Part shown: positions 32,577 through 47,760 of the stretch, piece after piece
Position numbering within the stretch: position 1 is the first letter of the stretch
How the letters are laid out: every line of letters begins with the position of its first letter
From: an uncultured Arcticibacterium sp.
Lineage (GTDB): Bacteria > Bacteroidota > Bacteroidia > Cytophagales > Spirosomataceae
NCBI RefSeq assembly: GCF_964021845.1
Contig: NZ_CAXHZC010000006.1
Span: 9,084 to 73,083 of the forward strand
DNA: 64,000 bases
Direction: 5' to 3'
The notes under the pieces: generated by a model
What the model was told of the DNA's origin: nothing
Seen by the model: the letters and a program-made list of their open reading frames with translations, nothing else
The model's database searches: none
Made by a program: the position numbers and the translations under genes

Positions 32577-33374
32577 ATGAAACTAAAAACATACATTACT
32601 TTTCTTTGCTTACTCTTTAGTTTAAATTCTTTGTCTCAATCCATTGATGAGCATCCAAGAATCATTAGAGTTCTCACGTTCAATATTCTTCATGGTGCTA
32701 CCACCAATAATGATTTTGACTTAGACCATATTGCCAAAGTTATTTCAGATGCCAATCCTGATTTTGTAGCCTTACAGGAGGTAGATTATAAAACCAACAG
32801 AGCTAAAAAATATGATTTAGTAACGGAATTGGGCTATAGAACCAAGCTCTCCCCTCTTTTTGGAAAAGCCATGAAATATGATGGTGGCGAATATGGCGAG
32901 GGAATTTTGGCAAACTACACTTTCTTAAATAGCAGAAACATCATCCTGCCTTATACTGCAGGCAGAGAACCCAGAGCAGCTTTAGAGGTAACCTCTGTTT
33001 TAGCCTCTGGTGATACCGTTTCTTTTATTGGAACTCATTTAGACCATTTAAAAGACGGAAAAGACAGACTGGCTCAGGTGCAAAGCATCAATGAAAATTT
33101 CACTTCAAACCAATACCCTAGCATTTTAGCAGGTGACTTAAATGATACGCCAGGCAGCATAGCCATTAATACTTTAGAAAAACATTGGCTTTCTTCTTAC
33201 AATAAAGAAAACCCAAAGCCTACCTACCCTTCTGATAAGCCCGAAGTTAAAATAGATTATGTCATGTTTTACCCTAAAAACAGATGGCGAGTATTGACCA
33301 CCGAAGTGATTCAAGATGCTGTAGCCTCTGACCACTGTGCGTATTTAGTTACGGTAGAGTTACTCGAAGAATAG
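32577..33374 (+). CDS. secreted endonuclease/exonuclease/phosphatase (EEP) family protein
   Basis: 265 aa with a signal peptide. EEP motifs RVLTFNILHG, VALQEVD, GTHLDH, GDLND, SDHCAY. Confidence 0.85.
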   Translation: MKLKTYITFLCLLFSLNSLSQSIDEHPRIIRVLTFNILHGATTNNDFDLDHIAKVISDANPDFVALQEVDYKTNRAKKYDLVTELGYRTKLSPLFGKAMKYDGGEYGEGILANYTFLNSRNIILPYTAGREPRAALEVTSVLASGDTVSFIGTHLDHLKDGKDRLAQVQSINENFTSNQYPSILAGDLNDTPGSIAINTLEKHWLSSYNKENPKPTYPSDKPEVKIDYVMFYPKNRWRVLTTEVIQDAVASDHCAYLVTVELLEE

Positions 33375-33436
33375 AAATAAGCCTTTGGCAATTCATTAGG
33401 TCTATAAATTGCCTTAGCTTTGTCAAAATTTATATT

Positions 33437-34804
33437 ATGCACTGGGAAACACTTTTTTCGAACAAAAGATACGGCTCTAGAAACCTTCAAAACACAGACG
33501 AAACTCGTGGAGAATATCTGAGAGATTACGACCGTCTTATTTTCTCTTCCCAGTTTAGAAGACTTCAAGATAAAACCCAAGTTTTCCCTTTGCCAGGCTC
33601 CATATTTGTACATAACAGACTTACGCACAGCTTAGAAGTAGCCTCAGTAGGCCGTTCTTTAGGGAGATTAGTAGGCGAAAAAATAGCCAAGAAAAACAGC
33701 GAAAACTTAAGCCCCCATGCTTCTGAGTTTTACAAATTTGCTCTAGCAGATGTAATCCAAACAGGCTGCATAGCTCACGATATTGGCAATCCTCCTTTCG
33801 GACATTCAGGAGAAGACGCCATAAGAACCTTTTTCGAAGAGCTTTCTGGCAGTCAAAAAGAAACCTTAGAAAAAGAGCTAACGCCAAACCAACTAGCCGA
33901 TTTAAAAAATTTTGAAGGAAATGCCAATGCATTCCGAGTCTTAAGTACACTGTTTTTAAAAGCAGGCTTAAAACTGACTTATACTACTTTGGCTTCTATT
34001 GTCAAATATCCAATTGATAGTTTAAACGGTTTTGACAAGTCTACGGGCTTAATCTCTACTAAAAAATCTGGGTATTTTGATGCAGAGCTTTCTGTCATGA
34101 AAGAGATGGCTGCCGACCTTAAAATGAAGACTTTGAACGAAAGTAAAAGTCATTTGGCCAGGCATCCATTCGTATTCTTAGTGGAAGCTGCTGATGATAT
34201 TTGTTATAGAATCATAGACTTAGAAGATGCTTTCAGGCTTCATATTCTTGGTTTTAAAGAGGTGGAAGAGTTACTTCTTCCATTCTTTGAGGGAAAAAAA
34301 AATGAAGCTTATATAAAAGAGCAAATGCTGAGCATGAAAGACGAGAAGCAAAAGCTTTCCCTGCTGAGAGCTATGTTAATTGGCCTTTTGACCAGAAAAT
34401 GCTCTGATGCCTTTATGGCAAATGAAGTGGCTCTTTTAAACGGTGACGTAAACAAATCGTTGATTGAGCTTATAGATGAAAAGTCTATCCAACTCATTGA
34501 TAAAATTGACGCTATTTCTGTCAGTAAAATCTACAATCACAAGTCTGTAGTAGAAATCGAAATTGCAGGCTTTCATGTTATTGGCGGCCTTTTAAAGGAA
34601 TTTCTTGGTGCTATTTTAGAGCCTAAGTCGGCCAAGTCTAAAAAGATGAAAAAGCTAATTCCAGAGCAATTTGAAATAAGTAATGACCTGCCACTGTATC
34701 AAAACATCTTATCTGTTTTAGATTTTATTTCGGGCATGACAGACATTTACGCCGTAGACCTTTATAGAAAAATTACCGGAATTCAGATTCCTAGTTTGGG
34801 TTAA
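33437..34804 (+). CDS. dgt: dGTPase-family deoxynucleoside triphosphate triphosphohydrolase
   Basis: 455 aa. HD-superfamily dNTPase motifs RLTHSLEV, HDIGNPPFGHSGE, ADDICYRIIDLEDA. Confidence 0.85.
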   Translation: MHWETLFSNKRYGSRNLQNTDETRGEYLRDYDRLIFSSQFRRLQDKTQVFPLPGSIFVHNRLTHSLEVASVGRSLGRLVGEKIAKKNSENLSPHASEFYKFALADVIQTGCIAHDIGNPPFGHSGEDAIRTFFEELSGSQKETLEKELTPNQLADLKNFEGNANAFRVLSTLFLKAGLKLTYTTLASIVKYPIDSLNGFDKSTGLISTKKSGYFDAELSVMKEMAADLKMKTLNESKSHLARHPFVFLVEAADDICYRIIDLEDAFRLHILGFKEVEELLLPFFEGKKNEAYIKEQMLSMKDEKQKLSLLRAMLIGLLTRKCSDAFMANEVALLNGDVNKSLIELIDEKSIQLIDKIDAISVSKIYNHKSVVEIEIAGFHVIGGLLKEFLGAILEPKSAKSKKMKKLIPEQFEISNDLPLYQNILSVLDFISGMTDIYAVDLYRKITGIQIPSLG

Positions 34805-36969: not shown

Positions 36970-37223
36970 GTTTTTAGGTTAATTTTAAAAGTATGTCCTC
37001 GGAGAATTCAAAGTAAACTTTTAAGTATCACAGAATTATCACAAAGAAGTTTTCTACTAAAAGATGAGTTTAGACTTACGGAATTTCGTTTGGCAAGGTT
37101 CTATAAAATAAGCCATAAGCACTCAAAAATGCTCTGTGATAGTTTTGTTATAATTCTGACACTTTCACGTAATACCTAGGCTGTTCCTTTGTGTCAAGTT
37201 TAACATTAAAACAAAACAAGGAT

Positions 37224-38102
37224 ATGAAAAAAGGACACTTAAAGACTTTAGCACTAGCATTTATGGCATTGGCTTTTACCGCCTGCGACGATGATGATGA
37301 GCCTACGGCACAAAGCGGAGCATTGACATTAAACATTCAAGGATTAGAAGACTTGGGCTCGGAAGCCGTTTATGAAGGATGGTTAATTACGCCATCTGGC
37401 CCTATATCTACGGGCGTATTTACAGTCAATGGTTCGGGAGCCCTCTCTCAATCTCAATTTAACCTAGACCAAGATGTCTTAGACGCGGGTAGCACATTTG
37501 TTTTAACTATAGAGCCAGCAAATGACACCGACCCTGCACCTTCTAAAGTTCATATTTTAGCTGGAGATTTTTCTTCCAATTCTGCAGACCTCAATGTAGG
37601 TCATACAGCCGCTTTAGGAAGCGATTTTTCATCAGTGGCTGGCCAGTTTATACTAGCCACACCATCTACAGAAACTATGGATGACGAAACAAGCGGAATC
37701 TGGTGGCTAGACCCATCTGGACCTACAGCTACCCTTACTTTACCTACACTTCCTGAGGGATGGGTGTATGAAGGCTGGGCAGTAATAAACGGCACACCAG
37801 TAAGCAGCGGTACATTTACTAGCATTTCTGGTCCTGATAGCGGCGAGCCGTTTAAAGGAAGCGGCGGAACACCTCCTTTCCCAGGAGAAGATTTTGTGGC
37901 TAATCCTCCATCAGGAATGACATTTCCTACCAACCTTCAAGGTGGTGCGGGTGTAATAAGTATAGAGCCTTACCCAGATAATAGCCCTGCTCCTTTTACA
38001 TTAAAGCCATTAGTTGGTCAAATAGCAGCAGATGCTCCGGTACATACTTTATTAGATATGGGTCAAAATCTAAGTTTCCCTACGGGCACAGTAAGCAAAT
38101 AA
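37224..38102 (+). CDS. lipoprotein with a duplicated RskA-like (anti-sigma-K C-terminal-type) module
   Basis: Likely start is MKKGHLKTLALAFMALAFTAC at 37224. Two copies of the VYEGW(L/A)(I/V)..G.P.S.G.FT pattern, each followed by (V)(L/I)(T/S)IEP(A/Y)(N/P)D(T/N).PAP. The family assignment is tentative. Confidence 0.55.
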   Translation: MKKGHLKTLALAFMALAFTACDDDDEPTAQSGALTLNIQGLEDLGSEAVYEGWLITPSGPISTGVFTVNGSGALSQSQFNLDQDVLDAGSTFVLTIEPANDTDPAPSKVHILAGDFSSNSADLNVGHTAALGSDFSSVAGQFILATPSTETMDDETSGIWWLDPSGPTATLTLPTLPEGWVYEGWAVINGTPVSSGTFTSISGPDSGEPFKGSGGTPPFPGEDFVANPPSGMTFPTNLQGGAGVISIEPYPDNSPAPFTLKPLVGQIAADAPVHTLLDMGQNLSFPTGTVSK

Positions 38103-38126
38103 GTTTAACAATTTTCTAATATTAAG

Positions 38127-38154
38127 AGCAGCTCCATCTGGGGCTGCTTTTTTG
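38127..38154 (+). terminator. rho-independent terminator
   Basis: AGCAGCTCC-ATC-TGGGGCTGCT hairpin followed by TTTTTT. Confidence 0.65.
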
Positions 38155-38398
38155 TTTGAACGCTTTACATTTCAATTTAAAAACTAAGCCGAACCAAATA
38201 GACCTTCATAAATGTTACTAAAACCTATAACAGTAAACGTTTTCGCAAATGTAAACCTGTAGGTCATCAGTCAGCAATGTGGTTTATCACTATTTAAGTC
38301 CTTCTAAATAAACTAGCTTCTCTCTCCTTACCTTCAGGCGTACTTTTACTCATCTAGAAACCTAAATTTATCTCTATAGCAAGACTACTACCTTACTG

Positions 38399-40762
38399 AT
38401 GAAAAGCATATTACTTGACGTTTCAAAGGATTCACATAGTGGATTCAAGGATTTGGAAACCCATATTTCTATAGCCCCTTTAATTTCGTTTGTTAAAGAC
38501 AGAATGGAAAATGTACGTTCCGTCAATAAAAAATATTTTGAAAACCTTCTTTATAAACTAGAGAACGTTTTTGACCTGAAAGGTAATATACCACTTACCG
38601 ATACTTCTAATTACGAAAATCTCTTTGAAGAAATATACAATTTCTTAGTACCACCTGCTAGTGACGAATCGCAGGTGTATCTAGCCCTTAGTACTCCTAT
38701 AAAGCCTACTTTTTTTTATGGAACAGACGCCTTCTACAATTTACTTATAAACGAAGGAAATGGCTGTGTAAATCATGAATCCATAGAAGAATATGATCCT
38801 TCGCCAAAAAAGGAAATAATTCAGATATACTCTTTAATTTTAGAGAAGCTATATGGTTTTCCACCCCACCCTGCTAGGAGTATTATCATCAGTGTTAAAG
38901 AGACTGATTCTATCCTTAAGAAATACTATAAATTAGATATTGACAATACTTATGTAAGCGTAAGTCCTAAGGGAGAACTTCCAGAATTTGACTTAAGTCA
39001 AGTGAGAGAGTTATGGCAAAAAGATTTTGATATACACTCTATTTTAGAGCTTTTACCCTTATCAAACTTCAAGTTTAAAGGGTTTTCTGTCATTAAGCTA
39101 GAAGATATAACCACTACCCAGACAGTGGAACACATGAAAAGCTTAATCATAGAAAGGGCCTCTTTTAAAGACAATACCTATCATGTAGAAATTGTCAATT
39201 CTTTAAAAAACTTAACAAGAGACCCAAATCTATACTTTGACCTAGTTCCGCTACTTAAGGTAAATGATGAAGTAGTATTAAACCCAGACACACTGTGCAA
39301 CAGCCAGTTATTCAGACATACTTTTAATGGCGATACAGAGCAAAACACTTATATAAACTTCTGTAAAGAATTTTTTAAAAATCCCACCATGATTTTCAAG
39401 CCATCTCTGGAAATGGCTTCTTGTACCGAAAATGCATTTGACTCTAAAATGGTCAAAAATGAATTTAGGTCTTTAGCCATAGTACCAGTGGTTTGCAAAA
39501 AAAAGGTAATTGGAATACTGATATGCTATTCAAGAACTGAAAACGCTGTCAATGAGATTGTTTTAGGACAACTTCACACCGCCATCTCAGTTATAAGTCA
39601 AAGCTTAGAGCATGATATAGAAGAGTTTAATCACAAAATTGAGAGCATTATTAGAGAGAAATATACTTTCTTACAAGAAGCAGTAGAATGGAAATTTAAA
39701 GAAGCCGCACTTCATTACATGGATGAGCGACTAAACAGCTCTTTAATTAAGAAAGTAGAAACAGTGGCTTTTAAAAATGTTTATCCTTTATATGGTGCTA
39801 TAGACGTCAGAAATTCTACTATTGAAAGAAACACGGCTCAGCATTTAGATTTCATTTTTCAGATAAACTCACTTTTGCGTACGCTAAAAGCTATTCAGCC
39901 TCATATAGAACATGATTTAGCTGAAAAGTTAATTCCCAGAACTGAAAGGTTTTTAGACCGAATAAATAAAAACGAATATGCAGGTGATGAACTAAGAATT
40001 AAAAGCTTTTTAGATGCTGATATTTATTCCTTTTTATACGAAGTAAAGAATACTGTTACTAATACTGAAGCTTTAAAACTTATTAATGCATACCTAAACC
40101 TAAGCAAAGAATCTGGTGAAGGGCACTTACACAGAAGAGGTTTTGAAAACGACATGCAAACCATAAACTCTACGGTAAACAGATACCTAGAAAACAGTAA
40201 AGAAAAACTACAAGAGGACTTCCCTACCTATTTTGAAAAGTTCAGGACAGATGGTGTAGAGTATGACATATATATTGGTCAATCAATAGAGCCCAAAAAG
40301 CCTTTTCAAAAGAAATATTTAAATAAAATAAGGAAATGGCAACTAAGCTCCATGGCAGAAATAGCTCGGTTAAACGAAGCATTAATTCCTAAGCTATCTT
40401 TGCCCTTAAGAACTACACAACTCATTTTTATAAACCCAAACGCCATAGACATTAGTTTTAGAGAAGACGAAAGAAGGTTTGACGTAGAGGGGGCTTATAA
40501 TATTAGATATGAAGTTATCAAAAAACGAATAGATAAGGTTAAACTAAAAGGGAAAGATGAAAGGCTAACTCAGCCTGGCAAAATAGCCTTGGTATACTTT
40601 GACAGCCAAACTGCTAAAGAATATATTCCGTACATTGAAGATTTACAGGCACAAGGTTTGCTCTTAGATGACCTAGAACTTTTAGAACTAGAGCATCTCC
40701 AAGGCGTTAACGGTCTAAAGGCACTACGCGTTGGCATAAATTTAAATTCTGAAACAAACTAG
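38399..40762 (+). CDS. large cytoplasmic protein with central GAF-like domain (function unknown)
   Basis: 787 aa with no signal peptide or TM helix. The segment ending FRSLAIVPVVCKKKVIGILICYSRTENAVNEIVLGQLHTAISVISQSLEH looks like the end of a GAF domain. The long C-terminal helical/beta region (RFDVEGAYNIRYEVIKKRIDKV...PGKIALVYF) is not assignable by eye. Confidence 0.6.
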   Translation: MKSILLDVSKDSHSGFKDLETHISIAPLISFVKDRMENVRSVNKKYFENLLYKLENVFDLKGNIPLTDTSNYENLFEEIYNFLVPPASDESQVYLALSTPIKPTFFYGTDAFYNLLINEGNGCVNHESIEEYDPSPKKEIIQIYSLILEKLYGFPPHPARSIIISVKETDSILKKYYKLDIDNTYVSVSPKGELPEFDLSQVRELWQKDFDIHSILELLPLSNFKFKGFSVIKLEDITTTQTVEHMKSLIIERASFKDNTYHVEIVNSLKNLTRDPNLYFDLVPLLKVNDEVVLNPDTLCNSQLFRHTFNGDTEQNTYINFCKEFFKNPTMIFKPSLEMASCTENAFDSKMVKNEFRSLAIVPVVCKKKVIGILICYSRTENAVNEIVLGQLHTAISVISQSLEHDIEEFNHKIESIIREKYTFLQEAVEWKFKEAALHYMDERLNSSLIKKVETVAFKNVYPLYGAIDVRNSTIERNTAQHLDFIFQINSLLRTLKAIQPHIEHDLAEKLIPRTERFLDRINKNEYAGDELRIKSFLDADIYSFLYEVKNTVTNTEALKLINAYLNLSKESGEGHLHRRGFENDMQTINSTVNRYLENSKEKLQEDFPTYFEKFRTDGVEYDIYIGQSIEPKKPFQKKYLNKIRKWQLSSMAEIARLNEALIPKLSLPLRTTQLIFINPNAIDISFREDERRFDVEGAYNIRYEVIKKRIDKVKLKGKDERLTQPGKIALVYFDSQTAKEYIPYIEDLQAQGLLLDDLELLELEHLQGVNGLKALRVGINLNSETN

Positions 40763-40766
40763 TTCA

Positions 40767-41930
40767 ATGAATTACCAGGAAATACTAGACGATATAGAAA
40801 ACTATGTGAGCGAATTAATAAAAACTCACGCCGACGATCATTTAATTTATCATGGCCTGAAACACACGCAAATTGTGGTTTCTAATGCAAAATTCCTTGC
40901 GGGCTACTATACATTAAATGAAAGAGACACTTTCATAGTTTTAGCTTCTTCCTGGTTTCATGACACCGGTTATTGTAACGGTTCCAAAGTAGAGCATGAA
41001 AAAAGAGGTGTAGACTTTACCGTCCATTTTTTAAATAAATATGAAATTGAAAAGGAAACTTTAGAAGAAATATCGGCATGTATTAAAGCCACTACTCTTC
41101 CCCAAAATCCTCAAAACCTTCTTCAAGAAATTATTTGTGATGCCGACCTTTTTCATTTTGGAACAGACGATTTTGAGCAATTTAATGAAAGCATGAAACT
41201 CGAAACAGAGCATTGCTCAGGAGAAAAGATACCAAATAAAAAGTGGAAGAATAGTAGCATTGAGCTCTTAGAAAAACACTCCTTTCATACATCCTACGGA
41301 AAAACTGTTTTGGCTAAACAAAAAAAGAAGAACATTTCAAAGCTCAAGAAAAAATCAAAAAAGAAAGAAGTGCCTGCTCAGAAAAGACCCGATAGAGGAA
41401 TAGAGACCATGTTTAGAATAAGCTCAAACAATCACCAAAGGCTGAGCGACATGGCAGACAATAAGGCACACATCATGATTACCACCACTTCCATTATTCT
41501 GTCCGTAGTACTTACCATTCTCTTTAGAGAAATGGATGCAAATCAATACCTGCTTATACCAAACTTCATACTAACCTCCGTATGTGTAGTTACCATGGTT
41601 TTCTCTATTTTAGCTACCAGACCAACTATTCCAAACGGTATCTTTTCTAAAGAAGACTTATCAGAAAAGAGAGTCAATCTTCTGTTTTTTGGAAATTTTT
41701 ACAAAATGCCTTACGAAGACTACTCTAGAGGTATGTTAAACCTCATGGACGATAGAGACTACTTATACGGCTCGCTCACGAAAGACATTTACTCTCAAGG
41801 AGTAGTTTTAGGACGAAAATATAGGCTTCTCAGAATAGCGTATAACATCTTTATGTTTGGCGTGGTGGTTTCAGTTTTGGCTTTTATCACCATGGCTATT
41901 ATTCAAGAAAAATCTCTAGGACAGATATGA
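40767..41930 (+). CDS. HD-domain phosphohydrolase fused to a 3-TM Pycsar-effector-like (DUF5706-type) membrane module
   Basis: 387 aa. HD motifs YHGLKHT, WFHDTGY, CDADLFHFG. Lys-rich linker. The C-terminal RGIETMFRISSNNHQRLSDMADNKAHIMITTTSIILSVVL plus two further TM helices matches my memory of the DUF5706/Pycsar effector TM family. Confidence 0.6.
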   Translation: MNYQEILDDIENYVSELIKTHADDHLIYHGLKHTQIVVSNAKFLAGYYTLNERDTFIVLASSWFHDTGYCNGSKVEHEKRGVDFTVHFLNKYEIEKETLEEISACIKATTLPQNPQNLLQEIICDADLFHFGTDDFEQFNESMKLETEHCSGEKIPNKKWKNSSIELLEKHSFHTSYGKTVLAKQKKKNISKLKKKSKKKEVPAQKRPDRGIETMFRISSNNHQRLSDMADNKAHIMITTTSIILSVVLTILFREMDANQYLLIPNFILTSVCVVTMVFSILATRPTIPNGIFSKEDLSEKRVNLLFFGNFYKMPYEDYSRGMLNLMDDRDYLYGSLTKDIYSQGVVLGRKYRLLRIAYNIFMFGVVVSVLAFITMAIIQEKSLGQI

Positions 41931-42769
41931 ACAAACTTCTTGCTTTGAATAATTTACTTTCAGCTTTTGGACTCTTTATGTTAGTTCAAGCTTGTTCGCC
42001 ATCATCATCATCCGCCACACTTAGCAGCTCAGATTTTCCTTATAATCTTGACAAACCTGAAGTTTTCCCTTTGCCTTTAAGTCTACTAGAAATATCGGGA
42101 ATAGCATTCAATAAAGGTAATGCCAAAATCACCTACGCTATACAAGACGAAAAAGGAGCCATTTACCAACTTAATAAAGATGAAATAACTCAGAAAACTC
42201 AGTTTATCAAAAATGGGGATTACGAAGATTTGAGTATTCTGAATAATCAAATTTATGTTTTACAAAGCAGCGGGAAAGTGTTTACCACAGCTCTAAGCGA
42301 AATGGTAAACAAAGAAACCACCGCCACCAGCGAGATAGACATTAAACTCCCAAAAGGCGAATATGAGTCCCTTTATGCTGACCCAGAAACCCAGTCGTTG
42401 TTTATACTTTGTAAAAAGTGTGACAAAAAGAATAGTATTCTGGGCTTCCAATATGACCTAAAACGTCAAAAAAAGAAGCCTGAAACATTTGAAATAAAAA
42501 CTAAGAATTTTTCAAAAAAAGGCTTTGCGGCCTCGGCCTTAGCCAGAAACCCAATCGATAAAGACTGGTACGTAATTTCTGCCATTAATGCGAGTCTTCT
42601 TGTTTTTGATACCGACTGGAATTTCAAAGAAAGCATAGAGCTAAAAAAAGACAATTTCAGACAACCTGAAGGTATAGCCTTTGACCAAGCGGGGCACCTT
42701 TACATCTCTAGTGAGGGAGATGATTTTACCAAAGGGAAAATACTGAAGTTCTCGCGAATCACAGACTAG
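41927..42769 (+). CDS. SdiA-regulated/phytase-like beta-propeller lipoprotein
   Basis: 280 aa with lipobox LVQAC. LLEISGIAF...AIQDEKGAIYQL...DYEDLSI...PEGIAFDQAGHLYISSEGD resembles the SdiA-regulated family. 4-nt overlap with the upstream gene. Confidence 0.55.
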   Translation: MNKLLALNNLLSAFGLFMLVQACSPSSSSATLSSSDFPYNLDKPEVFPLPLSLLEISGIAFNKGNAKITYAIQDEKGAIYQLNKDEITQKTQFIKNGDYEDLSILNNQIYVLQSSGKVFTTALSEMVNKETTATSEIDIKLPKGEYESLYADPETQSLFILCKKCDKKNSILGFQYDLKRQKKKPETFEIKTKNFSKKGFAASALARNPIDKDWYVISAINASLLVFDTDWNFKESIELKKDNFRQPEGIAFDQAGHLYISSEGDDFTKGKILKFSRITD

Positions 42770-42780
42770 CAAGCCCATTT

Positions 42781-45700
42781 ATGAAACTAAGCATAAACAA
42801 AATAGCTCTTCTTTTTCTATTATTTTTTTGCTATTCCTGTGCAACCTACAAGACACAGTACGCTGCCGAAACAGAGAAATGGCAAGAAGTAAAACCTGCA
42901 GACTCTCTTAGCATTACACACACCATGTATCTGATTGGCGATGCAGGAAACTCTACCCCTTCTCATAGGTCGCCTGTTATCAACTACCTCGAAGAAGCCT
43001 TAAAAAAGGAATCAGCAAACAGCTCTATCATCTTTTTGGGAGATAACATTTACCAAGATGGTATGCCATCAAAAGAAGATGTGGACGCCAGAGCAGATGC
43101 TCAATACAGATTAGAGGAACAATTGAAAATGCTTGACAATTTTAAAGGCAGGCCTATTATTCTTCCTGGGAATCATGATTGGCGAATTGACGGAGTAAAG
43201 GGCTTAAAAAGACAAAGCAAGTATGTTCAAAAATACCTCAACAGAGACAAAGAAAAGGACGATTACGAAGACTATTTTTTACCACTAGATGGTTGCTCTG
43301 GCCCAGAAGTGGTAGAGCTAAATGAAAATATAGTAGTGGTAGTGGTAGACTCTCAGTGGTGGCTAGCAGACTGGGATAATGACCCAGAGATTAACGACGA
43401 CTGTTCCATAAAAAATAGAGAGAATTTTGAGTTCGTTTTCGAAAACGTCATCAGAAAATATAGGAATAAAAATATAGTAATAGCCATGCACCACCCCCTT
43501 TATACGTATGGGCCTCATGGAGGTAGGTTTACCGCAAAACAGCATTTGTTTCCATTAACAGAAATGAAACCTAAGCTCTTTGTGCCTATTCCTATACTTG
43601 GTAGTTTAAGTGCTATAGTACGGGGTACAATAGGCTCAAGACAAGACGTTGCAAACAAGAATTATAAAGACCTCCGCTCGGCACTTTTGGCAGGTGTAAG
43701 TAAAAACGGAAATTTTATATTTGTGAGTGGGCATGAGCATACTTTACAGCATATTGAAAACAATGGTCAAAAATTTATAGTAAGTGGTAGCGGCTCTAAA
43801 AGCAGCCCTGTGGCTATGGGAAAAGGCTCTGAATTTGCCACAACTGATATGGGCTATAGCAAATTAGACTTTTACGAAGGTGGAGAAACTTGGGTCAATT
43901 ATTACACAGTAAATGACAAAGGAACGGCAGCAAAATTGGTTTACCGCAAAAAAGTAAAAGACACCAAAACACAAGAAAACGAAAACATTTTAGCGGATTT
44001 TTCTGAGCATGAAAGTCTACTAGACTCTGCCAATCATAAACTGACCAAAAATAAAATAGTACCCGTAGGCAAAGCACATGATTTCTTACTGGGAAAACAT
44101 AACAGAGACCTATATCTAGAAAGCTACAATTTCCCCGTTTTAGACCTATCGACTATTCAGGGTGGACTAACTCCTGTAAAGTTAGGAGGGGGCAATCAAA
44201 CCAACTCCCTACGTTTTGACGCCCCTAGCGAAAGACAATATGTTCTTCGGAATTTGACAAAAGACGTTACCCGCTTTTTGCCATTCCCTTTCAATAAAAT
44301 GAGTGTTGCAAAGTTTATTGTTGAAGATAATTTTCTATCCACAAATCCCTTCGCACCGCTGTCTATGCCAGCATTAGCTGACGCTATAAACGTATACCAC
44401 ACTAATCCTATACTTTATTATGTACCCAAGCAGCCCAACTTAGATGCTTATAATGACATCTTTGGAGAGTCGATGAACCTCTTTGAAGAAAGACCTAAAG
44501 GTAAACACTGGAAAGACGCAGGTTTCTTCGGAAATCCTGACAAAATCATCAATACACCTGATTTAATGGAGGCCATTCTGGAAAACAATAAAGATAGAGT
44601 AGATGAAAAGTGGATGCTCAGAACCAGGCTTTTTGACTTTTTAATAGGCGACTGGGATAGACATGACGACCAGTGGGCATGGGCTGCCATAAAACAGGGC
44701 AAAGGAGAAACCATTTACAGACCTATACCAAAAGACAGAGACCAAGCTTTCTCACTATATGATGGAGCTGCCGCAAATTTAGCAAGACTCACTGCTCCTT
44801 TTTTAAGACAGCTACAAAGTTTTGACCCAGAAATAAAAAGCATGAAATGGACTACCTGGAGTGCCCGATTGGTAGATAGAACATTTCTAAATGGGTTAAG
44901 TTGGGAAGACTGGGAAGAACAAGTTCTTTTTATTCAGCAACACTTAACAGACGAGGCTATTGAAAGGTCTTTTGACAACTGGCCTCCTAAAGCCAAAGAA
45001 ATCTCTTTTGAAAGAATTTCTAACAGCATAAAAACTAGAAGAGCCGATTTAATGAAAATTGCAAGAGCACATTACGAGTTTGTCAGCAAATCTGTCAACG
45101 TGATCGGTTCTGAAAAAGAAGAACGTTTTGAGGTAAAGAAACTAGATAAAAACAATACAGAAATAACAGTATTTGACCTTGACAAGGATGGTGAAAAAAG
45201 AAAAATAATTTATCACCGAGTTTTTGACAGTAGCATTACTAATTATGTAAATCTTTATGGAAACGGCGATAAAGACGAGTTTATTTTTAAAGGTGAGGCC
45301 AATAACAAATTAAAAATTAGATTTATAGGTGGTGATGGCAAAGACACTTTTAAAGACTTATCTACTTCATCTACTGGCAAAAAGAGAATCACTATCTATG
45401 ATGATTTAAAAAAGGACAAACTAAAGAGTGCCTCCACATTTAAGGATAAAAGAACCAATATCTTTAGATATAATGTGTACGACCGAAGAAACAATGACAG
45501 CAACTATGATATAGCTATGGTACTGCCCGTGATAGGTTTCAACCCTGATGATGGTCTGTTACTTGGGGGCAGTGTTAATTATACCAAATATGGTTTTAAA
45601 AAAGAGCCGTTTTCTTCTGTTCAGGATTTTAGACTTAAGTATGCTTTTCAGACAAAGTCATTAAGCATAAACTACGAAGGAGATTTTGTCGATACTTTCG

Positions 45701-46554
45701 GCGAATGGGATTTTTACCTCAAATCATTTTTACATGGCCCTAGTTATGCCTTTAATTTTGCGGGTGTTGGAAATAATACAATAAGACCCGATGACGACGA
45801 GAACTATTATAGAGTAAGACAAGCTGCCCTCCACATTTACCCAGCCATAAAGAAGAGGTTTGCTCATAACAGTGCTTATTTCAGTATTGGGCCATTTGCC
45901 GAACGCCTAAATTTACAAGCGACACCAGGAAGGTTTTTGGTGGAGAATACCATCAAAAATCAAGTTTTCGATAGTAAAAACTTTGTTGGCTCTAAGTTCT
46001 TATTCAGTTTTAATAGCGTTGATAATTTCATAGCTCCACATAATGGAATCATCTTTAATTCTGAATTCAAATGGTCTCATCAAACCAATAATTCTCAAAA
46101 CTTTGGTTCTATAAACGCCAGTCTTAGTTTTTTTAGGGCTTTAGATAGTAAAGAGAAATTAGTTTTAGCCTCCCAGTTTGGCACAGGAATTAATATTGGA
46201 GACGGATTTGAGTTTTATCAAATGCCCTATATTGGCGGCAAACAGGGTTTACGAGGATACAGGTCTGAAAGGTTTTATGGAAAGTATAGTTTCTGGCAAT
46301 CCACTGATTTAAGATATAAACTCAAGAGTAATTATAACCCATTAGTCCCTATCACTTATGGCGTTTTTGGGAGTTTTGACCATGGCAGAGTTTGGCTACC
46401 ATCAGAAAACTCCGACAGTTGGCACTATAGCTACGGCGGAGGCCTTTGGCTAGCTCCTGTAGACGCACTAACCTTTACGCTCGGACTATATTTGCCAAAG
46501 GAAAAAGAAGAAGAAAAACCCCGACTTGCGGTGAAGGCGGGGTTCTCTTTCTAA
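42781..46554 (+). CDS. calcineurin-like metallophosphoesterase fused to a C-terminal Omp85/Bac_surface_Ag-type beta-barrel
   Basis: 1257 aa with lipobox/signal FFCYSC. Metallophos motifs LIGDAGN, FLGDNIY, LPGNHDW, VSGHEHTLQH. The C-terminus (GGKQGLRGYRSERFYG...YGGGLWLAP...AVKAGFSF*) is typical of a surface-antigen barrel ending in Phe. Confidence 0.75.
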   Translation: MKLSINKIALLFLLFFCYSCATYKTQYAAETEKWQEVKPADSLSITHTMYLIGDAGNSTPSHRSPVINYLEEALKKESANSSIIFLGDNIYQDGMPSKEDVDARADAQYRLEEQLKMLDNFKGRPIILPGNHDWRIDGVKGLKRQSKYVQKYLNRDKEKDDYEDYFLPLDGCSGPEVVELNENIVVVVVDSQWWLADWDNDPEINDDCSIKNRENFEFVFENVIRKYRNKNIVIAMHHPLYTYGPHGGRFTAKQHLFPLTEMKPKLFVPIPILGSLSAIVRGTIGSRQDVANKNYKDLRSALLAGVSKNGNFIFVSGHEHTLQHIENNGQKFIVSGSGSKSSPVAMGKGSEFATTDMGYSKLDFYEGGETWVNYYTVNDKGTAAKLVYRKKVKDTKTQENENILADFSEHESLLDSANHKLTKNKIVPVGKAHDFLLGKHNRDLYLESYNFPVLDLSTIQGGLTPVKLGGGNQTNSLRFDAPSERQYVLRNLTKDVTRFLPFPFNKMSVAKFIVEDNFLSTNPFAPLSMPALADAINVYHTNPILYYVPKQPNLDAYNDIFGESMNLFEERPKGKHWKDAGFFGNPDKIINTPDLMEAILENNKDRVDEKWMLRTRLFDFLIGDWDRHDDQWAWAAIKQGKGETIYRPIPKDRDQAFSLYDGAAANLARLTAPFLRQLQSFDPEIKSMKWTTWSARLVDRTFLNGLSWEDWEEQVLFIQQHLTDEAIERSFDNWPPKAKEISFERISNSIKTRRADLMKIARAHYEFVSKSVNVIGSEKEERFEVKKLDKNNTEITVFDLDKDGEKRKIIYHRVFDSSITNYVNLYGNGDKDEFIFKGEANNKLKIRFIGGDGKDTFKDLSTSSTGKKRITIYDDLKKDKLKSASTFKDKRTNIFRYNVYDRRNNDSNYDIAMVLPVIGFNPDDGLLLGGSVNYTKYGFKKEPFSSVQDFRLKYAFQTKSLSINYEGDFVDTFGEWDFYLKSFLHGPSYAFNFAGVGNNTIRPDDDENYYRVRQAALHIYPAIKKRFAHNSAYFSIGPFAERLNLQATPGRFLVENTIKNQVFDSKNFVGSKFLFSFNSVDNFIAPHNGIIFNSEFKWSHQTNNSQNFGSINASLSFFRALDSKEKLVLASQFGTGINIGDGFEFYQMPYIGGKQGLRGYRSERFYGKYSFWQSTDLRYKLKSNYNPLVPITYGVFGSFDHGRVWLPSENSDSWHYSYGGGLWLAPVDALTFTLGLYLPKEKEEEKPRLAVKAGFSF

Positions 46555-46581: not shown

Positions 46582-47559
46582 TTATTCTTCTTTTCTGGTG
46601 GCCGTCATGCTAAACATTTCCATTAGAGAACCTTTGGCTTGATTGGCATCTTCTGCTTTTAAATAGAAGTTTAAATCATAGCCCATCATTGTAAAACTGG
46701 CAGTAATAGTACTATCCTTAACCATCACATCGCTCATAACTATCTCACTCCCATCCTCTGGATTAGTAGAGTATCCGTTTAAACCATCATCTCCTGCTTC
46801 AAATCGCATGGGTATCGTTACGTCACCGTTCGGCGTGCCTACTACCAAAACATCCCAAGAGCCTAAATAATAGTCTTCAGGTGATGCTGTCTCTTCCACC
46901 ACTCTTATCGCCTCTGCCTCAAACATATCCATTAAAGAACCCGTCATAATATCCTCAGACTCCTTTTTTAAGCTTATGGTAACATCATAGCCTACAATGT
47001 GAAAAGCCATATTCAAGGTTTCGTCTTCTATTTCAGCCGAATCCATTTCTTCTTCTCCACTGTCAGGATTTGTAAAATAACCAGTAACCACATCGCCATT
47101 TTTCTCAAACCTCACTGGTATTTGAACATCACCTTCAGGCGTACCTTCAACAAAAACATTCCAAGATCCTATAAAATATGCATCAGCGTCAACCACTCTA
47201 GTAGCCTCCGCCTCAAACATTTCCATCAAAGAACCTTTCATGCTGTTCTCCGTTTCCTTTTTTAAATTCATGGTCACATCATATCCAGCTATATAAAAAG
47301 CCACTGAAAGTGTCCCATCTTTTATTTCAGCAGAATCCATTTCTTCCTCTTCTCCACTCTCTGGATTAATAAAATAACCCGAAACCACATCGTCTGTCAT
47401 TTCAAACCTCATAGGTAATTCAGCGTCGCCTTCGGGTGTTCCTTTTACTAAAACATTCCACGAATCAAGAAAGTAGCTATTGTCTTCTTGGGCCTGTACA
47501 TTTACAACTGAAGTCAATAAGAAGGCTGTGAGGGTTAAAAAGTTTTTCAATTTTCTCAT
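46582..47559 (-). CDS. secreted protein made of three tandem ~100-aa acidic modules
   Basis: Likely start is MRKLKNFLTLTAFLLTSVVNVQAQ at 47559. Three copies of Y(F/Y)(L/I)(D/G)SW(N/D)V(L/F)V.GTP.GD...P(M/V)RFE...D.(V/L).GY(F/S)(I/T)NP(E/D)(S/D)G(E/S)E...(D/S).....(D/E)(G/E/S)T(L/I)...F...GYD(V/L)...LK.E......GSLM(E/D)MF...A.R. Confidence 0.65.
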   Translation of the reverse strand: MRKLKNFLTLTAFLLTSVVNVQAQEDNSYFLDSWNVLVKGTPEGDAELPMRFEMTDDVVSGYFINPESGEEEEMDSAEIKDGTLSVAFYIAGYDVTMNLKKETENSMKGSLMEMFEAEATRVVDADAYFIGSWNVFVEGTPEGDVQIPVRFEKNGDVVTGYFTNPDSGEEEMDSAEIEDETLNMAFHIVGYDVTISLKKESEDIMTGSLMDMFEAEAIRVVEETASPEDYYLGSWDVLVVGTPNGDVTIPMRFEAGDDGLNGYSTNPEDGSEIVMSDVMVKDSTITASFTMMGYDLNFYLKAEDANQAKGSLMEMFSMTATRKEE

Positions 47560-47760
47560 TTCAATAAGTATAAGTTCGTTTAATAAATGTAATTGCAAGT
47601 TTCTCCATAGAATCTACAACCAGACCTAACACTTTAGCAAAATGATAAAAAAACAAGCAACCTCCTAATAGGAACTCACCTTCTCAATTTCATTACTGTC
47701 AAAAGCAAGTGCATCTTTAGTACAAAAAAAGAGGTCACCAAAACAGGTAACCTCTCTAAG

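Follow-up and report, generated by a model that had tools for sequence, protein, structure and literature searches.

We analysed a 64-kb window of DNA from an uncultured Arcticibacterium sp. (contig NZ_CAXHZC010000006.1) and found that four consecutive genes, g1 (787 aa), g2 (387 aa), g3 (280 aa) and g4 (1257 aa), form a real operon conserved across soil and water Bacteroidota, which in most relatives also encloses a gene for the polyphosphate kinase PPK1. By fold prediction, g1 carries a class III nucleotidyl cyclase domain behind GAF-type sensors; g2 is an inner-membrane protein with an HD hydrolase and a PycTM module, g3 a propeller lipoprotein and g4 a predicted outer-membrane metallophosphoesterase. 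The cluster would be a new, undescribed variant of cyclase-plus-effector signalling within an envelope-spanning module. A literature search found no paper describing the combination of g1 to g4, with or without PPK1, in line with an earlier reading of the window from its letters alone (the original prediction), which had recognised no described system of this composition. Tentatively, and short of even confidence, we read the cluster as a vertically inherited, Bacteroidota-specific, co-transcribed housekeeping module that spans the envelope, handles phosphate and phosphoesters under nucleotide-signal control, and couples cytoplasmic phosphate or polyphosphate status to an outer-membrane phosphatase complex.

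Conservation was assessed in 80 genome loci chosen for a g1 relative, with 10-kb flanks, from at least 533 g1-matching genome stretches. The loci covered Cytophagales, Sphingobacteriales and Chitinophagales, with Dyadobacter, Pedobacter, Mucilaginibacter, Niastella, Puia and other Chitinophagales represented, and their content was scored by tblastn with g2, g3 and g4 and by unsupervised clustering of all open reading frames (ORFs). The tblastn searches located g4 in 78 loci and g2 and g3 in 74 each, invariably on the strand of g1. Clustering recovered g1 in 80 loci, g4 in 74, g3 in 73, g2 in 72 and an ORF of ~675 aa in 57; the next most frequent family reached 18, so that only these five families were widely shared and any other neighbour family occurred in at most 18 of the 80 loci. 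The ~675-aa ORF is a canonical PPK1 polyphosphate kinase and, where present, always lay between g2 and g3 (median gaps, 8 and 1 nt). The order g2-ppk-g3-g4-g1 predominated (40 loci), followed by g1-g2-g3-g4 (7), g1-g2-ppk-g3-g4 (6), g2-ppk-g3-g1-g4 (5), g2-g1-g3-g4 (4) and others. The expectation that the four genes co-occur and stay adjacent in relatives was thereby borne out (72-78 of 80 g1 loci, one strand, at least six orders), neighbourhood and strand being kept throughout. Median intergenic gaps were 1-39 nt, with 132 nt at the g4>g1 junction. The five proteins also co-diverged over 1607 locus pairs; for example, 93% identity in g4 went with 92.5% in g1, 91% in g2 and 88.5% in PPK1. Adjacency and co-divergence therefore indicate a vertically inherited functional unit rather than a mobile defence cassette. 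Because PPK1 is inserted between g2 and g3 in most genomes, the physiological theme is most likely external phosphate release coupled to internal polyphosphate storage or use. Among the loci sampled, no cluster had PPK1 without g1. The 64-kb window holds no PPK1 gene, which is why the original prediction missed this clue.

Searches of g1 against Pfam, NCBIfam and PADLOC (a model set that includes Pycsar models; E <= 0.1) gave no match. Structure prediction and a Foldseek search, proposed in the original prediction as a way to look for a hidden cyclase or PEP-utilising fold in the 787-aa protein, revealed the former, at the level of fold, and not the latter; the original prediction had been unable to recognise a cyclase. 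An AlphaFold2 (AF2) model of residues 432-787 (pLDDT 86.6, pTM 0.81) retrieved adenylyl or guanylyl cyclase catalytic domains from the PDB at all of ranks 1-34 (best E 3e-4, probability up to 1.00, target-normalised TM-score up to 0.59). The matched structures included Cya2 (2w01), soluble guanylate cyclase (3uvj), CyaC (1wc0), GC-A, Rv1900c and mammalian adenylyl cyclases, and the predicted element order, b1-a1-b2-b3-a3-b4-b5-b6-a4-b7-a5-b8, is the canonical cyclase-homology topology. In the model, the last 330 aa of g1 adopt the fold of a class III nucleotidyl-cyclase catalytic domain with a ~135-aa helical insert, which showed lower conservation and indels in the family alignment.

The invariant residues of g1 include D469, R471, N472, D618, G619, E621, D623, D690, E691, R692, N701, R703, K708, K709, R710 and K728. 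The end of strand b1 bears D469 (YGAIDIRNST), the b2-b3 turn bears D618 (FRTDG), and helix a4 starts with N701 and R703 (FDVEGAYNIRY). Placed by motif and predicted secondary structure, D469, D618, N701 and R703 would fall where cyclases keep the metal-binding Asp and the Asn/Arg pair. At the sequence level, a Pfam scan of 22 family members at E <= 10 returned no cyclase family (PF00211) match, and neither did a scan of six constructs lacking the helical insert; a profile of the insert-deleted alignment found nothing among all PDB sequences, and hmmsearch and hhalign comparisons with the minimal cyclase of locus L006 were negative. Since all these tests were negative, the cyclase assignment of g1 is a fold-level one only. 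Two other identities were rejected: no PEP-utilising or other known enzyme fold matched g1 in Pfam, NCBIfam, PDB sequences or the fold search, and GGDEF proteins, which would indicate a diguanylate cyclase, appeared only in the full-length search via the sensor parts, the domain-only search being dominated by adenylyl and guanylyl cyclase domains. The L006 protein itself (Dyadobacter sp. CY343; L006:414-1058, minus strand) is a 214-aa minimal class III/Pycsar-like cyclase (FDLEGFS...KFMGDG...INLASR) lying ~3.4 kb upstream of the cluster in its own genome, and is probably an unrelated stand-alone enzyme.

Ahead of the cyclase-fold domain, g1 carries predicted sensor domains. Residues 1-225 are its most variable part, at only 55% identity to the sister contig L102, against 89-99% for the flanking genes. 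The full-length model (pLDDT 82.9) matched tandem PAS-GAF-PHY modules in the fold search. The GAF-like core foreseen in the original prediction was weak by sequence (PDB profile 3o5y, E 0.004, residues 261-395; among the 22 family members, PF01590 was touched in 15 and GAF_2 PF13185 in 13, best E 9e-5) and clear by fold (3p01 and 3ci6, target-normalised TM-score 0.56-0.60), and NCBI names orthologues 'GAF domain-containing protein'. A long helix (residues 396-443) separates the GAF and cyclase-fold domains, and the full-length model resembles PAS/GAF-coiled-coil-cyclase sensor proteins, a predicted fold that fits a ligand-regulated enzyme. The family comprises 403 matches and 944 representative clusters at 50% identity, with a uniform architecture of ~780-810 aa throughout the clusters; its N-terminal half is variable, and its C-terminal half shows very strong conservation with many invariant D, E, R and K residues. 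A cyclase-fold family of this size is invisible to Pfam, NCBIfam and PADLOC, and cyclic-nucleotide signalling in Bacteroidota may therefore be under-counted.

The g2 protein joins an N-terminal HD phosphohydrolase (residues ~25-195) to a complete C-terminal PycTM/CBASS-2TM-type module (~215-385). The module matched PF18967 in Pfam (E 4.4e-34) and the PADLOC PycTM model (E 1.4e-14, covering positions 15-156 of 160); CBASS '2TM effector' models matched as well, and the ~160-residue PADLOC models aligned nearly full length to residues 220-380. The HD domain was weak in the window protein and clear in the family, where 22 of 25 orthologues matched HD (PF01966; best E 2e-10) and 23 of the 25 matched HD-CE, with a further match to the YedJ-type HD structure 3gw7 (E 6e-6); a literature search on 'HD-CE' returned unrelated clinical papers only. 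H29, H33, H65-D66, D125 and D127, which supply the metal-binding motif H...HD...D, were invariant in orthologue sets of 25 and 71, and to judge by these residues the hydrolase looks catalytically intact. V303-NLLFFGNFY312 was likewise invariant. By inspection, g2 has three hydrophobic helices, and its lysine-rich linker and highly conserved 284-358 loop (VNLLFFGNFY) appear to be cytoplasmic. In Pycsar and CBASS effectors, a PycTM-type module responds to a cyclase-made nucleotide.

The outer part of the envelope is represented by g3 and g4. The g3 protein is a six-bladed NHL/SdiA-regulated (YjiK-like) beta-propeller, with PF06977 at 47.9 bits against a cut-off of 21 and NHL-propeller chains of the PDB matching down to E 4e-9; by inspection its signal peptide ends in LVQA-C23, and C23 is the one invariant residue of that region in 72 sequences. 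The enzyme domain of g4 carries the metal-ligand blocks GDAG / GDNIY / GNHD / MHHP / GHEH, four of which were invariant and MHHP largely conserved among 63 homologues. We take the five-block pattern GDxG / GDxxY / GNH(D/E) / xxxH / GHxH, including the GDxxY tyrosine, to be the purple-acid-phosphatase signature; databases label the domain only as a generic 'metallophosphoesterase' (PF00149). The barrel of g4 scored 70 bits (E 2.4e-19, residues 1077-1224) with NCBIfam Omp85_fam NF047779, whose cut-off is 200, and many homologues carry PF01103 or PF03865; no POTRA profile matched g4. All three proteins thus bear out what had been read from the letters, namely an HD protein with a DUF5706/Pycsar-effector-type transmembrane module (g2), a periplasmic propeller lipoprotein (g3) and a calcineurin-like phosphoesterase with an Omp85 barrel (g4), the barrel as a probable assignment. 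Between enzyme and barrel, g4 has a conserved domain of ~480 aa with the invariant motifs GGGxQxxSLR, LxEER, DxDRHxDQWxW and PxDRDQ, for which there was no Pfam match in five diverse members and no PDB sequence match. To the eye, GDWDRHxDQW...DRDQ recalls the catalytic loop of PI3/4-kinase or HipA-type enzymes, a candidate likeness that, if true, would place a kinase-like domain beside a phosphatase in the envelope.

We compared these proteins with known relatives. Like the GAF-regulated class III cyclases (cyanobacterial CyaB1/CyaB2, Cya2 and CyaC; soluble guanylate cyclase), among which 2w01, 3uvj and 1wc0 were its best structural matches, g1 combines one or more GAF sensors, a long helix and a cyclase-fold domain. 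Unlike them, it shows no sequence similarity to PF00211 or any PDB cyclase, so that it belongs to the class by fold and topology and lies outside it by profile, and it has a large helical insert after b1 and motifs of its own (YGAIDIRNST, FRTDGxEYD, DERRFDVEGxYNIRY). The g4 protein resembles PlpD-type (type Vd) fusions in joining an N-terminal hydrolase to a probable C-terminal Omp85-family barrel; the patatin domain of PlpD is reported to stay periplasmic (PMC11116518). It differs from them in its passenger, a purple-acid-phosphatase-type enzyme plus the ~480-aa domain instead of a patatin, in the lack of a detected POTRA, and in having a dedicated propeller lipoprotein partner, g3. With purple acid phosphatases g4 shares the five-block signature, but its domain is fused to an outer-membrane barrel and its profile support is confined to generic PF00149.

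The two parts of Pycsar are a class III-like cyclase and a receptor of PycTM or TIR type (PMC11224242). The g1-g2 pair is similar in placing a class III-type cyclase fold and a PF18967 PycTM protein 4 nt apart in one operon, and would follow the same scheme of signal generator and membrane receptor. It is unlike Pycsar in that g1 has 787 aa with GAF sensors and a 135-aa insert and is unseen by Pycsar or Pfam cyclase models, that g2 carries an additional HD hydrolase, that the pair sits within a vertically conserved module of 4-5 genes whose other members are PPK1, the propeller lipoprotein and the outer-membrane phosphatase, and that the context is one of housekeeping genes with no defence island, PycTM-g3-g4 also occurring without an adjacent cyclase. 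An adjacent PycTM effector is thus present in g2, and a compact, patchy defence operon is not; g1, without a PADLOC or Pfam match, is class III by fold, its nearest neighbours being canonical adenylyl and guanylyl cyclase enzymes. We did not file g1-g2 as Pycsar because its distribution and context are not those of such an operon and the likeness of g1 to a cyclase holds only at fold level.

Within the window lineage, g1 showed an unusual history. Gene order and flanks of the window recur on the sister contig L102, where the flank proteins are 89-99% identical at pS 0.14-0.47. Inside the cluster, protein identity and pS were 67% and 0.81 (saturated) for g1, 84% and 0.68 for g2, 79% and 0.61 for g3, and 91.5% and 0.54 for g4. 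The window g1 was closer to the allele of Arcticibacterium luteifluviistationis (75%) than to that of L102, though the flanks were closer to L102. This suggests that an anciently diverged allele replaced the resident one in situ or recombined with it, with g1 at the centre of the exchange. The anomaly is lineage-specific: in other genera g1 diverged in step with its neighbours, which rules out diversifying selection as a general property of g1. Seen along the DNA (window 38399-42769 against L102:10001-14381), divergence fell in one gradient that runs from g1 by way of g2 and g3 to g4.

The apparent replacement of g1 by an anciently diverged allele (pS 0.81 against 0.14-0.47 in the flanks) is a pattern common at conflict loci, and a cyclase fold adjoining a PycTM-domain protein is the defining Pycsar pairing (PMC11224242); both would suit a Pycsar-like anti-phage abortive-infection system, in which a cyclic nucleotide, made by g1 on sensing infection, would be followed by permeabilisation of the membrane by g2, with g3, g4 and PPK1 as accessories. 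We regard this as highly improbable. Most of the species sampled in several genera of three orders carried the module, whose genes co-diverged (loci selected on g1), the module lies neither in a defence island nor near mobile genes, no PADLOC cyclase model matched g1, its conserved partners (outer-membrane phosphatase, propeller and PPK1) have no place in Pycsar, and outside the window lineage g1 diverged at its neighbours' rate. The abortive-infection flavour of the original prediction accordingly gave way before co-inheritance across three orders, co-divergence, housekeeping surroundings and the occurrence of HD/PycTM with g3-g4 without a cyclase. The partnership of PPK1 with an outer-membrane, purple-acid-type phosphatase points to phosphate/polyphosphate physiology over immunity.

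In the tentatively preferred reading, a housekeeping phosphate module under nucleotide-signal control, g1 would be a soluble sensor-enzyme whose two GAF-type ligand-binding domains act through the long helix on the divergent class III cyclase-fold domain. This domain, probably working as a dimer as such domains do, would convert a nucleoside triphosphate into a (cyclic) nucleotide signal. In the inner membrane, g2 may receive this signal through its PycTM-type module, in which conserved cytoplasmic segments flank three transmembrane helices; the fused HD domain might degrade the signal or act on a related phosphorylated substrate, and g2 would relay to the envelope. There, the periplasmic lipoprotein g3 and g4 would form an outer-membrane arm that hydrolyses phosphoesters, coupled physically or functionally to the inner membrane, and PPK1 would tie the module to polyphosphate, linking external phosphate release to internal polyphosphate storage or use.

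Several results weigh against this reading. The cyclase match of g1 is fold-only, with a modest Foldseek E-value (3e-4) and an AF2 model instead of a solved structure, and no test run gave sequence-level similarity to any cyclase. The residue correspondences come from motif position and not from superposition, and the N701-x-R703 spacing is non-canonical, the canonical cyclase Asn-Arg spacing being N-x-x-x-R. The window and 23 of the 80 loci have no PPK1 in the cluster, and a Pho-type regulatory signal and a riboswitch were both sought and neither was found. In Arcticibacterium luteifluviistationis, the closest named relative (g1 75% identical), g1-g2 stand at this site and g3-g4 ~4 Mb away; PycTM(+/-HD)-g3-g4 clusters exist without g1 (L085, L086, L099, L101); and g4 also occurs alone or only with g3.

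Some of these results, namely the clusters of PycTM(+/-HD) with g3-g4 that lack g1 and the absence of sequence similarity between g1 and cyclases, would fit a trans-envelope phosphate/polyphosphate machine that works without cyclic-nucleotide signalling, as would the 135-aa insert of g1, the embedding of PPK1 in 57 of 80 clusters, and the invariant charged g1 motifs that have no canonical cyclase counterpart (DERRF, TTQLIF, KKRIDK and ERLTQPxK). Here the g1 palm would be an enzyme other than a cyclase, such as a nucleotidyl- or phosphoryl-transferase that works on polyphosphate or another phosphorylated polymer, or a ligand-binding pseudo-enzyme, and the PycTM-like part of g2 would be a structural anchor or channel in the inner membrane for a g3-g4 complex of the outer membrane. 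We consider this unlikely, as the nearest structural neighbours of the g1 domain are exclusively adenylyl and guanylyl cyclases, GAF plus long helix plus cyclase domain is the classic regulated-cyclase architecture, acidic residues are invariant at both expected metal-ligand positions as placed by motif, and families of nucleotide-activated effectors align along the whole g2 module.

Loci centred on g4 were compared as well. Here g4 stood alone in L083, L084, L090 and L095, as g3-g4 in L082 and L097, as PycTM-g3-g4 without g1 in L085, L086, L099 and L101, and in the full set in L088, L094 and L102. The PycTM-g3-g4 clusters without g1 indicate that g2 is not strictly in need of an adjacent cyclase. 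Because of these contexts, the PycTM-type protein appears tied to the outer-membrane pair in its own right, with g1 and PPK1 as an additional layer. In the second locus of Dyadobacter psychrotolerans (L085:6817-12789), HD (209 aa) and PycTM (177 aa) were separate adjacent genes, followed by g3-like and g4-like genes; this paralogous cluster has neither g1 nor PPK1, and the same genome also carries a full cluster. In Arcticibacterium luteifluviistationis (L082:9183-16087), the detached g3-g4 pair is followed by a patatin-Omp85_2 gene (PlpD-like), which puts two enzyme-Omp85 fusions side by side.

The split in Arcticibacterium, with g1-g2 at the site and g3-g4 ~4 Mb off, the g4 family, with more than 4077 matches ~10x larger than the g1 family with 403, and the loci in which g4 stands alone or only with g3 could mean that two independent pairs merely tend to co-localise, g1-g2 serving cytoplasmic/inner-membrane signalling and g3-g4 being an outer-membrane phosphatase, with no shared pathway. 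That is decidedly unlikely. Adjacency survived at least six gene orders, including the interleaved g2-g1-g3-g4 and g2-ppk-g3-g1-g4; L057, L064 and L074 keep g4 and g1 adjacent although g2 and g3 are missing; separate HD and PycTM genes stand directly upstream of g3-g4 in the paralogous cluster; the genes co-diverge; and in the window g2/g3 overlap by 4 nt and g3/g4 are 11 nt apart. In L057 (7432-12382), g4 has only 845 aa, aligns from query residue ~429 on and immediately precedes g1; neither g2 nor g3 occurs within 10 kb. Judged by this alignment, the g4 of L057 appears to be a variant without the N-terminal phosphatase domain.

A bolder version of the preferred housekeeping reading, which we hold to be unlikely, is that the cluster encodes a second-messenger pathway whose like has until now been known from phage defence alone. 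The nucleotide made by a cryptic, GAF-gated class III cyclase, possibly a non-canonical one, would act on a PycTM/CBASS-2TM-HD protein of the inner membrane, which would couple PPK1 metabolism to the outer-membrane phosphatase/propeller complex. Pycsar-type immune effectors would then either stem from this module or have been domesticated into it, and signalling across the envelope would have a new route. That PycTM, which is annotated and understood as an effector of phage defence, stands here in a chromosomal module that is conserved and co-diverges bears on how immune effectors originate from physiology or are recruited into it, and cautions that single domains are insufficient for calling defence systems. 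In soil and rhizosphere genera that matter for phosphorus cycling (Pedobacter, Mucilaginibacter, Dyadobacter, Chitinophagaceae), the association of PPK1 with an outer-membrane purple-acid-type phosphatase suggests that regulation may link the mineralisation of organic phosphate outside the cell to polyphosphate storage inside it.

The gene layout of the window (Table 1) is as first noted, including the ORF coordinates, the 4-nt gap between g1 and g2, the 4-nt overlap of g2 and g3, the 11-nt gap between g3 and g4 (ORF list), the 296-bp spacer between the RskA-like gene and g1, and the convergent closing gene. The upstream terminator announced earlier was present too, at a position shifted from the 38127..38154 given for it. 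No convincing terminator was found between genes inside the four-gene cluster. An Rfam scan of the g1 upstream region gave sub-threshold matches only, on the terminator hairpin, and no riboswitch or leader RNA. Sigma-70-like promoter matches were not enriched over shuffled sequence (36 against 29 +/- 6.4 expected), and a search for a shared upstream motif or Pho box in 75 clusters yielded AT-rich k-mers only. Around the cluster are genes for a two-component system, an RskA-like (anti-sigma-like) protein, a GH43 glycosidase, an RRM protein, a penicillin amidase and an NYN-domain protein; these flanking genes are ordinary chromosomal or housekeeping genes with no mobile or defence genes among them, and GC content is not deviant.

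Table 1. Positions of the genes, predicted domains and boundary elements of the g1-g4 cluster in the window.
Feature	Position	Strand	Description and basis
Upstream RskA-like ORF	37191-38102		RskA_C
Intrinsic terminator of RskA-like gene	38124..38151	+	12-pair stem (6 GC pairs), then T-run; 5' operon boundary
Putative promoter-bearing intergenic region upstream of g1	38152..38398	+	no riboswitch/known RNA family
g1	38399..40762	+	ATG start, 787 aa; predicted cytoplasmic sensor-enzyme (GAF-like / GAF / long helix / class III cyclase-fold domain)
g1 residues 1-225, N-terminal alpha/beta sensor-like domain (PAS/GAF-like)	38399..39073	+	predicted secondary structure; full-length fold search
g1 residues ~226-395, GAF domain	39074..39583	+	PDB profile, Pfam in family members, fold
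g1 residues ~456-787, class III nucleotidyl-cyclase-fold (palm) domain	39764..40759	+	AF2 domain model and Foldseek
g1 residues ~473-607, ~135-aa helical-bundle insertion between b1 and b2	39815..40219	+	helices H42-176 of domain model
g2	40767..41930	+	ATG start, 387 aa; inner-membrane HD + PycTM protein
g3	41927..42769	+	ATG start, 280 aa; lipoprotein beta-propeller
g4	42781..46554	+	ATG start, 1257 aa; predicted outer-membrane metallophosphoesterase-Omp85 protein
g4 residues ~45-400, purple-acid-phosphatase-type metallophosphoesterase	42913-43980	+	PF00149 E 9e-7; motif blocks; preceded by signal peptide
g4 residues ~415-900, conserved middle domain, ~480 aa	44023-45480	+	invariant motifs in homologues
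g4 residues ~905-1257, probable Omp85-type beta-barrel	45493-46551	+	NCBIfam Omp85_fam; homologues' Pfam
Convergent ORF closing the cluster	46582..47598	-	338 aa, TTG start, no Pfam match

The convergent 338-aa ORF is absent from the clusters of other genera and diverges fast between close relatives (69-74% identity, pS 0.67). Upstream of the two-component system, the window also carries an Exo_endo_phos gene and a dGTPase-like HD/HD_assoc gene (32577-34804). In Arcticibacterium (L081:13576-15803) these genes lie directly downstream of g2, where the window has g3-g4, a local rearrangement that concerns two more phosphoesterase genes.

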